From: a bacterium
GTDB lineage: Bacteria > Hinthialibacterota > Hinthialibacteria > Hinthialibacterales > Hinthialibacteraceae
Assembly (NCBI GenBank): GCA_963662285.2
Contig: CAXXMV010000002.1
Location: forward strand, 1,312,001 to 1,376,000
DNA length: 64,000 bases
Reading direction: 5' to 3'
Shown here: positions 58,751 to 60,008 of the stretch, one piece after another
Numbering within the stretch: the first letter of the stretch is position 1
Layout of the letters: every line of letters begins with the position of its first letter
Position numbers and translations under genes: made by a program
Notes under the pieces: generated by a model
Seen by the model: only the letters and a program-made list of their open reading frames with translations
The model's database searches: none
What the model was told of the DNA's origin: nothing

Positions 58751-59893
58751 TTAACGCAATTTAACGGTTTTCATGACCTGGCGCAGGGTCTCAAGGTTCT
58801 TTTGCAGTTCAGGATTCTTGAAATGCTCCCGAACCGGCGCCAGTAGATCGGCGATGCTTTGGGCGAGAGCTGTTTTAAGGTCCATGGGGTGAAGTTGCTT
58901 CTCACCGAAACAGGTGGTCAGTTCTTCCAGGGTATTAAAGGTCAAATCGCCGCCCCATTCTTCTTTACGCTTGATCTCCAGCGGGCCGCGTCCTAACGCA
59001 TAGACCAGATGCTGCGCCCAATTCAAGACTGGATTAAAGTCGGTCTCGCCTTCAGGGCAGAATGCTTTTTTCATTTTTTTGGCGATGACGTCCGGTTCGT
59101 CGGTAATGAAGACGGCGGTTTCGGGTTTCGACTTGCTCATCTTCATGGCCATCCAGACTTCCTGCATACGGTCGGGATCGATAGGCCACATAGGCGGTTT
59201 GCCCAAACCGATCAAAAGATGGTGATGCACCGCCATAGGCGTAAGCTGCTCGCCGGATTCGGACATAAGCGGCATGGTCTTCATCTGGTTGGCTACATCC
59301 AGCGCTACTACATGGGCTTTTCGCTGATCGGTGCCCGCCTGCGCCAGATTGACGCCCAGCGCGTAGATATCCGCCACCTGCATGGGTGGGTAAACCAATT
59401 TGGCGAAATCAACCGACTCGCCTTCAGCGCGTCCCAGAATGGTGATGGAGCGCATGATGCGTTTTAGGGTGGTGTTTTTACATACTTCTATAAAAGCAGT
59501 CCAGTATTCAGGACGTTTCTGGTATAGATCAGAACCCAGGACGACATTCAATTTATCCGGGTCGCCGCCAACCGCCTTGAGGCAGCTTTTCAGCCCTTCG
59601 GCGAAATAGCCATAGGCGAATGAACGGATCTGTTCGATGTCGCCGCCCAGTTTGTCGTTGATCCAACTGTGCCAGTCGGCCAGAAAGAGAGTACATTCCA
59701 CTCCGGCTTTCTGAAAATCAGCCACTTTAGCCATGCATTGGATTCCGGTGCCAAGATGAATCTCGCCGGATATTTCAAATCCAATGTAATGGCGCAACGG
59801 GATATCTTTTTCCAGATACTCGCGTAAACGGCTTTCGGTTAGTACTTCCTGGGTATTGGCTTTGATAAGGTCGAATCGGTCGTTTATATTCAT
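58751..59893 (-). CDS. tyrS: Tyrosine--tRNA ligase, archaeal/eukaryotic type
   Basis: YIGFEISGEIHLG, ADWHSWINDK, YPPMQVADI, GTDQRKAH, KMSKS, KAFCP, WGGDLTF and LHPMDLK motifs; no bacterial S4-like C-terminal domain. Confidence 0.93.
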   Translation of the reverse strand: MNINDRFDLIKANTQEVLTESRLREYLEKDIPLRHYIGFEISGEIHLGTGIQCMAKVADFQKAGVECTLFLADWHSWINDKLGGDIEQIRSFAYGYFAEGLKSCLKAVGGDPDKLNVVLGSDLYQKRPEYWTAFIEVCKNTTLKRIMRSITILGRAEGESVDFAKLVYPPMQVADIYALGVNLAQAGTDQRKAHVVALDVANQMKTMPLMSESGEQLTPMAVHHHLLIGLGKPPMWPIDPDRMQEVWMAMKMSKSKPETAVFITDEPDVIAKKMKKAFCPEGETDFNPVLNWAQHLVYALGRGPLEIKRKEEWGGDLTFNTLEELTTCFGEKQLHPMDLKTALAQSIADLLAPVREHFKNPELQKNLETLRQVMKTVKLR

Positions 59894-59925
59894 GGGGTTT
59901 AGAGTCCGGGGTAGAAAAGAAGAAA

Positions 59926-60008
59926 TCCAGGGGGTTGGGTTCGAACCAACGAAGGCTTGCGCCAGCGGGTTTACAGCCCGCCCCCTTTAGCCACTCGGGC
60001 ACCCCTGG
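59926..60008 (-). tRNA. tRNA-Tyr (GUA) with long variable arm and C1:G72 pair; CCA not encoded
   Basis: CCAGGGG acceptor pairs with CCCCTGG followed by A73. D-arm CCCGAGTGGCTAAAGGG, anticodon arm GCGGG-CTGTAAA-CCCGC, V-arm GGC-GCAA-GCC, T-arm GTTGG-TTCGAAC-CCAAC. Confidence 0.97.

Follow-up and report, generated by a model that had tools for sequence, protein, structure and literature searches.

An archaeal-type tyrosine identity system, synthetase and tRNA, in a bacterial family outside the Candidate Phyla Radiation

The first base pair of tRNA-Tyr is a textbook domain-specific identity rule: bacterial tyrosyl-tRNA synthetase (TyrRS) reads G1:C72 plus the long variable arm via an S4-like domain, and archaeal/eukaryotic TyrRS requires C1:G72. 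To our knowledge, natural breaches of this rule have previously been reported only in bacteria of the Candidate Phyla Radiation (CPR). In a 64,000-nucleotide stretch of bacterial DNA (contig CAXXMV010000002.1 of assembly GCA_963662285.2, positions 1,312,001 to 1,376,000; hereafter the window), a tRNA-Tyr gene lies directly upstream of tyrS, the gene for TyrRS, and an original prediction, made from the letters alone, held that both genes carry archaeal-type features. Does a bacterium that is not a member of the CPR charge tyrosine by the archaeal rule, and if so, how did it come to do so? On the gene content, sequence features, distribution and phylogeny reported here, the locus is very probably the cell's only tyrosine-charging system, in which a TyrRS of archaeal descent serves a tRNA with a bacterial body and an archaeal acceptor end, following a swap fixed in the ancestor of the host family.

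The window protein is a class-Ic synthetase, with PF00579 matching residues 32-351 of its 380 (133.7 bits). No Pfam family beyond PF00579 was found in it at E<=0.01, and it lacks an S4-like C-terminal domain. The NCBIfam model NF006330/PRK08560 scored 404.7 bits against a cut-off of 220, aligning residues 1-365 with model positions 1-335 of 342; among 14 control genomes, this model exceeded its cut-off only in the four archaea. The model TIGR00234 reached 107.7 bits, under its cut-off of 113.8, and aligned with residues 2-214 only. A tryptophanyl-tRNA synthetase (TrpRS) identity was considered and rejected, as the trpS models scored at most 84.7 bits (TIGR00233, 84.7 versus a cut-off of 176.75). 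Among solved structures, the window protein scored highest against long TyrRS chains from archaea, namely 2cyc_A (427.9 bits), 7fg6_A (368.3 bits) and 2cya_A (240.3 bits). The alignment with 2cyc_A (375 aa) runs end to end, from window residues 1-372 to residues 1-370, and the 306-aa TyrRS of the 1j1u type scored about 190 bits against the window protein.

The signature motifs of the enzyme are in place. The HIGH-like motif reads H46-L-G-T49 and the KMSKS motif K251-M-S-K-S255, with H46-L47-G48 and K251-M252-S253-x-S255 invariant across an 8-sequence alignment. In Methanocaldococcus jannaschii TyrRS, R174 is described as reading C1 and K175 as reading G72, while R132 contacts C1 via water (PMC1934993). 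We mapped these residues in two steps, from 1j1u to P0266 and from P0266 to the window TyrRS, both in ungapped, conserved blocks; R132, R174 and K175 align with window R148, R191 and K192. Both R191 and K192 are invariant in all eight aligned TyrRS sequences, and R148 is kept in seven. By the same alignment, M. jannaschii Y32 and D158 correspond to window Y36 and D175, and H283 and D286 to H335 and D338, which we take to be tyrosine-pocket and anticodon-G34 contacts, respectively. Because of these mapped, conserved residues, the window TyrRS appears to retain catalytic function and to have what the archaeal rule for the acceptor stem demands.

The partner of this enzyme is the sole tRNA of the window, called by ARAGORN as tRNA-Tyr(gta) at 59925-60009 on the minus strand. 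In the Rfam RF00005 alignment it reads 5'-CCAGGGG-UG-CCCG...CCCCUGG-A, giving the acceptor pairs C1:G72, C2:G71 and A3:U70, the discriminator A73 and the anticodon GUA. The archaeal/eukaryal identity set (C1:G72, A73, GUA) is thus present, and the class-I shape with a short variable loop that goes with it in those domains is absent: the variable arm in the alignment has 13 nt with a 3-bp stem, which places the tRNA in the long-arm class II, a bacterial feature. Judged as a bacterial tRNA-Tyr, the gene has the long variable arm and lacks the G1:C72 first pair. The prediction of archaeal features in both genes therefore holds for the synthetase and for the top of the tRNA acceptor stem; the variable arm is bacterial. 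The CCA 3' end is not encoded in the gene, which is uninformative on foreign origin because about 19 of the 44 tRNAs of the host's own genome were flagged, by a rough criterion, as carrying it.

We then asked whether this locus is all that the cell has. The host assembly comprises 7,286,025 bases (7.29 Mb) in 8 contigs and is 92.5% complete. It holds one PF00579 match, which is the window tyrS, and one tRNA-Tyr among its 44 tRNAs; a search for a second TyrRS or a G1:C72 tRNA-Tyr, which the original prediction had proposed as a check, found neither in the assembly. The archaeal-type pair might nevertheless be an accessory to a canonical bacterial pair lying in unassembled sequence, a reading favoured by the incompleteness of the assembly and by its lack of trpS. 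The family as a whole argues otherwise. NF006330 exceeded its cut-off in 20/20 family genomes (the host's own included) versus 0/21 other genomes, and TIGR00234 exceeded its cut-off in 0/20 family genomes, compared to 14/15 other genomes of the class and 4/6 genomes outside it. Fourteen of the 20 family genomes are at least 90% complete, two of them nearly so in full (G014, about 99%; G013, about 98%; our handles for genomes, contigs and loci begin with G, C and L). The one other genome of the class without TIGR00234 over cut-off, G034, is 68% complete. A second PF00579 match of about 240 bits, in open reading frames (ORFs) of 337-397 aa, falls under the cut-offs of both TyrRS models in family genomes and fits a bacterial TrpRS; this TrpRS-like match is found in 17/19 family relatives.

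The tRNA side gave the same division. Using the window tRNA as a BLAST query, we recovered tRNA-Tyr in 16/19 family relatives and 10/15 other genomes of the class, and in none of the six outside it. The 17 family genes (own included) all begin CCAGGG(G/A), end in the complement plus A, and have C1:G72, so that no G1:C72 tRNA-Tyr occurs among them. In the 10 genes of the remaining families of the class, the 5' end is GGGGGG or GGAGGGG, and the first pair is always G1:C72. Given 0/20 family genomes with TIGR00234 over cut-off and 0/17 family tRNA-Tyr genes with G1:C72, we consider a hidden canonical pair very improbable.

In those sister families the enzyme differs as well. Six of seven sister-lineage proteins, 423-464 aa long, match TIGR00234 near end to end with 384-424 bits; the seventh, the 448-aa TyrRS of G028, matches positions 6-382 with 316 bits. 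From this near-full-length model coverage and the protein lengths, we infer that the sister-family TyrRS is of the bacterial type.

The family tRNA genes also bear the marks of use. Across the 17 copies, all 23 pairs of the cloverleaf and variable-arm stem are kept and none is broken, with compensatory double changes at 6 pairs, variable-arm stem included, a sign of selection on the structure. No copy differs in the top three acceptor pairs or in A73 (17/17). Such a pattern is as expected of a functional tRNA with its acceptor end under selection.

Several side observations concern these genomes and their tRNAs. The pair G31:C39 closes the anticodon stem (GGCUGUAAACC) in all 17 family tRNA-Tyr genes, and A31:U39 (GACUGUAAAUC) is found in most other bacterial tRNA-Tyr genes compared; the G:C state at 31:39 also occurs in G033, in G034 and in the long-arm tRNA-Tyr of G042. 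In the host's own genome (G000), tRNA-Trp (C6:1804497-1804571) ends in the bacterial fashion, with A1:U72 and G73, and ARAGORN reports a tRNA-like gene at G000:C6:52554-52639 on the minus strand, to which it assigned no type and only two anticodon bases (ca). G028, of the same class, encodes a 384-aa TrpRS (L119:2911-4065, minus strand, = G028:C1) beside its bacterial-type TyrRS. The best models for this TrpRS are the archaeal-type PRK12285 set, at about 315 bits and below their cut-offs, and TIGR00233 scores 241.9 versus its cut-off of 176.75; the tryptophan system of this genome may have undergone a cross-domain swap of its own. The same genome holds a TyrRS-like fragment with one in-frame TGA at G028:C1:138647-139138.

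We next considered where the enzyme came from. Outside the family, the best 67 loci encode TyrRS relatives 52-60% identical to the window protein, labelled as Woese-, Pace-, Nano-, Aenigm- and Huberarchaeota and Asgard groups (including Promethearchaeota), with two Planctomycetota-labelled metagenome-assembled genomes (MAGs) as the exceptions. A FastTree of 150 rows, with bacterial-type TyrRS as the root (four outgroup rows, used in this run only), shows the family TyrRS as one clade (support 100) deep in the archaeal-type radiation. For the tree rows, 64 of 150 representatives were kept (300-430 aa, at least 300 query residues aligned), and L014, a truncated gene, was excluded from both trees. 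A more careful IQ-TREE analysis (LG+C20+F+G4), on 63 rows chosen from the 150-row set, recovered the family as monophyletic (100/100) and nested among DPANN- and Asgard-labelled archaeal rows. The sister clade (93/90) comprises four rows, both Planctomycetota-labelled sequences among them, and the next branch out (94/95) is L039, labelled only "archaeon". The phylogeny that the original prediction had called for thus placed the family among archaeal-labelled rows and not with bacterial TyrRS. Judged on sequence, the enzyme is of archaeal type and archaeal ancestry, with no single archaeal group emerging as the donor.

Archaeal labels on the nearest TyrRS relatives outside the family could also reflect a binning or assembly artefact, in which an archaeal fragment was joined to a bacterial genome. 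The surroundings of the locus make this scarcely credible. It is internal to a 1.85-Mb contig and is flanked by bacterial genes, encoding a formyltransferase (both domains), an ECF-type (extracytoplasmic function) sigma factor and a hisH-like amidotransferase; the order tRNA-tyrS-hisH recurs in independent assemblies, in 10/13 loci; and the tRNA-Tyr itself has the bacterial long arm. Within the family, the nearest TyrRS sequences are 70-95% identical and are labelled Candidatus Hinthialibacter sp. (87% identical to the window TyrRS), Candidatus Omnitrophota bacterium, or simply bacterium. One family locus, L013, is from isolate SURF_12, placed in phylum OLB16, now Candidatus Hinthialibacterota and formerly under Omnitrophota (PMC9324843). 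Family genomes measure about 4.2-8.4 Mb. As the original prediction had it, the host is not a CPR organism, given its 7.29-Mb genome, the Candidatus Hinthialibacter label of the 87% identical TyrRS and its bacterial flanks; nor is it a mis-binned archaeal fragment.

Some observations weigh against a family-wide swap and should temper it. TIGR00234 is not specific to the bacterial type, because it also exceeded its cut-off in four archaeal control genomes. In three of the 19 family relatives (G008, G015 and G017; 85-86% complete), tRNA-Tyr was not recovered; a BLAST match in G008 (L111) was dropped because it is a tRNA-Ser locus. The backbone of the IQ-TREE phylogeny is poorly resolved, with 22/60 inner forks open and the bootstrap not fully settled. 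Finally, the host assembly lacks any TrpRS gene, so an essential class-Ic synthetase can be missing there: PF00579 and TIGR00233 match the TyrRS only, tblastn with the TrpRS-like ORFs of G005 and G007 gave only a weak match (E ~8e-4) on tyrS, and a search for the missing trpS via synteny with G005 found that gene order is not conserved. This absence is probably an assembly gap. Because trpS is missing too, the absence of a bacterial TyrRS from this genome alone proves little, and it is the family-wide count that carries the argument. Taken together, a TyrRS of archaeal ancestry that is the only TyrRS found in 20/20 family genomes, beside sister families that keep the bacterial TyrRS and G1:C72, bears out the prediction that a horizontally acquired synthetase replaced the native one: the tyrosine identity swap is fixed across the host family, after gene transfer from archaea.

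The two genes are tightly linked (Table 1). The predicted distance of about 32 nt on the same strand proved exact in coordinates and orientation, with tRNA position 73 at 59926 and the tyrS ATG at 59893. No terminator-like site was found on the minus strand between tRNA-Tyr and tyrS, although the promoter/terminator scan of 57900-60400 gave nothing above chance anywhere (two promoter-like sites and one terminator-like site, none above shuffled expectation); co-transcription of the two genes is likely. Of 5 sequencing runs from 3 studies, none is an RNA run that contains this stretch. The tRNA was the only match in an Rfam scan of 59800-60200 at E<=1; neither a T-box nor any other leader RNA was detected near it or near the start of tyrS. 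Surveying relatives in the named-genome collection, as the original prediction had suggested, we found tRNA-Tyr directly upstream of tyrS in 13/13 family loci and a hisH-like homologue directly downstream in 10 of the 13. Beside the archaeal-type tyrS of the 67 non-family loci, there was no tRNA-Tyr. Just upstream of the tRNA-Tyr gene is a 532-aa ORF (60086-61684, minus strand) whose many hydrophobic stretches suggest an integral membrane protein; Pfam gave no match for it at E<=0.001, and it is conserved in 4/13 family loci, with 48-55% identity. In five sister genomes, the tRNA-Tyr neighbourhood has no genes in common with the window locus, and neither the hisH-like nor the membrane-protein gene is near tRNA-Tyr there, a comparison that favours no particular history of the tRNA gene.

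Table 1. Features of the tRNA-Tyr/tyrS locus, in window coordinates
Feature	Position	Strand	Evidence
tRNA-Tyr(GUA) gene	59926-60008	minus	Rfam RF00005 53.5 bits (gathering score 29); ARAGORN
Spacer between tRNA-Tyr 3' end and tyrS ATG, 32 nt	59894-59925	minus	sequence
tyrS, archaeal-type tyrosyl-tRNA synthetase, 380 aa	58751-59893	minus	ORF; PF00579; NF006330
hisH-like glutamine amidotransferase; context gene downstream of tyrS, not part of the pair	58114-58722	minus	PF00117 60 bits

Although the host family is set apart within its class, it is not the only such case outside the CPR. Among 41 genomes around G041, carriers of archaeal-type TyrRS are only G041, G042 and G072. The first two are the Planctomycetota-labelled MAGs, whose loci are L137 (G041:C38), L138 (G042:C520) and L136 (G042:C225). 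Their other PF00579 matches are all TrpRS, no bacterial-type TyrRS was found in either, and every tRNA-Tyr found in them has C1:G72. Each has a 76-nt tRNA-Tyr in which C1:G72 goes with a short variable loop and a CCA encoded in the gene, and G042 has in addition a long-arm C1:G72 tRNA-Tyr. G072 (3.2 Mb, with about 67% G+C at these loci) encodes an archaeal-type TyrRS (NF006330, 402 bits; L144:1468-2607, minus strand, G072:C23), and its second PF00579 match (243.7 bits) lies in an 877-aa open frame. On a contig other than that of tyrS is its tRNA-Tyr (L146:1469-1551, G072:C6), the only one that a pattern search found there, with a long arm, no encoded CCA and an acceptor stem, CCAGGGG...CCCCUGG-A, identical to that of the host family. 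In a quick tree, the G072 TyrRS joins the bacterial group weakly (SH-aLRT 88). These data place archaeal tyrosine identity in a second non-CPR lineage, and probably in a third.

How, then, did a bacterial tRNA come by an archaeal acceptor end? In one scenario, the archaeal tyrS was acquired alone, and the resident tRNA-Tyr changed its top acceptor pairs from G1:C72, G2:C71 and G3:C70 to C1:G72, C2:G71 and A3:U70. The tRNA itself speaks for this. Its body is of the bacterial class-II type; the highest mean body identity of the family tRNA-Tyr is to that of G021, of the same order (0.85); the family shares U8-G9 with most class relatives, compared to U8-U9 in 4/4 bacteria of other phyla; and the BLAST recovery described above, 10/15 within the class versus 0/6 outside it, points the same way. 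The C1-G72 tRNAs of the CPR that bear a variable arm were read likewise by Mukai et al. 2017 (PMC5370408). However, the margin is small, with body identities of 0.73-0.81 in unrelated bacteria and 0.83 in G072, and the neighbourhood of the family tRNA has no synteny with those of tRNA-Tyr in the five sister genomes. A lone archaeal TyrRS would moreover be without a substrate until the tRNA changed, and a changed tRNA would lose its native enzyme, so that this scenario calls for either a second copy of the tRNA gene or a relaxed intermediate stage. We give it an even chance.

In the other scenario, C1:G72 tRNA-Tyr and archaeal-type tyrS, linked and adapted beforehand in a different bacterium, arrived as one unit, persisted beside the native pair as an orthogonal pair and later took its place. 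This would solve the viability problem: the two identity sets do not cross-react (PMC1934993), so a foreign pair can be present before the native one is lost. The linkage in 13/13 family loci fits it, as do the sister position (93/90) of the Planctomycetota-labelled clade, in which tRNA-Tyr has only C1:G72 and the other PF00579 matches are TrpRS, the presence together of short-arm and long-arm C1:G72 tRNA-Tyr in G042, and the combination of stem, long arm and missing CCA that is identical in G072. Conversely, tRNA-Tyr does not adjoin tyrS in G041, G042 or G072, nor in any of the 67 other loci; the body of the G042 long-arm tRNA is only 0.57 identical to that of the family; the placement of the G072 TyrRS with the bacterial group is weak; and CCAGGGG could have evolved independently from a GGAGGGG stem like that of G028, through the flip of two pairs. 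We consider transfer of a finished cassette somewhat less probable than the first scenario. The predicted remodelling of the native tRNA acceptor stem has weak support: the body is bacterial and closest to that of G021, but unrelated bacteria and G072, with its identical stem, come near in identity, and the constant linkage fits a ready-made pair equally well.

By whichever route the pair arose, our preferred explanation, a sole tyrosine-charging system fixed in the family ancestor, would work as follows. By analogy with solved archaeal and yeast complexes, R148, R191 and K192 of the TyrRS would read the first base pair and the discriminator, and the helical C-terminal domain would read the GUA anticodon. 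The variable arm would be ignored, because the enzyme has no S4-like domain to bind it. The C1:G72 and G1:C72 identity sets are described as not cross-reacting (PMC1934993). Because each type of tRNA is charged by its own type of enzyme only, both pairs, foreign and native, could have operated side by side in one cell with no cross-charging, up to the loss of the native one. In a lineage that resembles Hinthialibacter and lies outside the CPR, the exchange would then have become fixed in the common ancestor of a single family. From the residues and stem described above, we infer the charging specificity that this scheme requires.

A broader idea is that this branch of archaeal-type TyrRS is mobile as a self-sufficient orthogonal tRNA/synthetase pair among unrelated, large-genome, non-CPR phyla (the Hinthialibacter-like family, the Planctomycetota-labelled MAGs and the G072 lineage), where it invades, coexists and replaces. 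We regard this as speculative and rather unlikely. If true, the tyrosine identity rule would be a trait open to transfer and not a constant of each domain of life, and G042, with its short-arm and long-arm C1:G72 tRNA-Tyr, would be a snapshot of turnover on the tRNA side.

The breaches known from the CPR looked like a special case, with reduced genomes and close contact with DPANN archaea; the window family is free-living, with genomes of 4-8 Mb. Together with its unswapped sister families, it offers a clean comparative system for the replacement of an essential identity set without loss of viability. Enzymes that naturally accept a class-II (long-arm) C1:G72 tRNA are also candidate alternative orthogonal scaffolds, although any gain over existing pairs is unproven. 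The M. jannaschii TyrRS/tRNA-Tyr is the standard and most widely used orthogonal pair in genetic-code expansion. Since pairs of this type already fill the role, the suggestion in the original prediction of a natural orthogonal pair for practical use appears overstated.

The closest natural parallels are those of the CPR. An archaeal/eukaryal-type TyrRS with C1-G72 tRNA-Tyr, many of these tRNAs keeping the variable arm, has been described in Parcubacteria, Microgenomates, Dojkabacteria and Katanobacteria (Mukai, Reynolds, Crnkovic and Soll 2017, Life 7:8; PMC5370408). The same work explains the transfers by how closely CPR bacteria associate with DPANN archaea and infers DPANN-like archaea as the source of the TyrRS. 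The original prediction had noted that such swaps were described in the CPR, and they are indeed in print, down to the C1-G72 tRNA-Tyr with a variable arm (PMC5370408), so its estimate of novelty was too high. The window system resembles them in its bacterial host, archaeal-type TyrRS, C1-G72 tRNA-Tyr and often retained variable arm. It differs in that CPR hosts have small genomes and are often episymbiotic (PMC5370408), whereas the window host is Hinthialibacter-like with 7.29 Mb, and in that the swap is family-wide with documented unswapped sister families and a tightly linked tRNA and tyrS. Neither Omnitrophica, Planctomycetes nor OP3 occurs in the text of PMC5370408, whose supplementary tables could list further hosts. 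The full-text literature, a scope that leaves out most subscription journals and supplements, yielded no report of archaeal-type TyrRS or C1-G72 tRNA-Tyr in Omnitrophota, Hinthialibacterota or Planctomycetes, and term searches in PMC9976931, PMC11580382, PMC13433404 and PMC9324843 found none there either. The kind of swap is thus known from the CPR; the Hinthialibacter-like and Planctomycetota-labelled lineages are new.

Among solved enzymes, 2cyc_A has the HIGH region, KMSKS and DQRK motif in common with the window TyrRS; it differs in being the enzyme of an archaeal host, and the window partner tRNA keeps the long arm. The source of 2cyc_A is presumably Pyrococcus horikoshii, and the tRNA partner of this archaeal enzyme has a short variable loop. 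M. jannaschii TyrRS (1j1u) shares the recognition logic of C1:G72 and A73, carried by the three residues mapped above. Compared to this 306-aa enzyme, the window TyrRS has about 30 extra residues, inserted after the Rossmann fold and before KMSKS, and extends further at its C-terminus, and compared to the M. jannaschii pair, the window tRNA-Tyr has a long variable arm. The nearest functional precedent is an E. coli strain built to grow with a TyrRS and tRNA-Tyr of archaeal origin (PMC2887954). There too, the bacterial tyrosine pair was completely and functionally replaced by an archaeal-type pair, but that strain is a laboratory construct, whereas the window case is a natural replacement fixed in a lineage.

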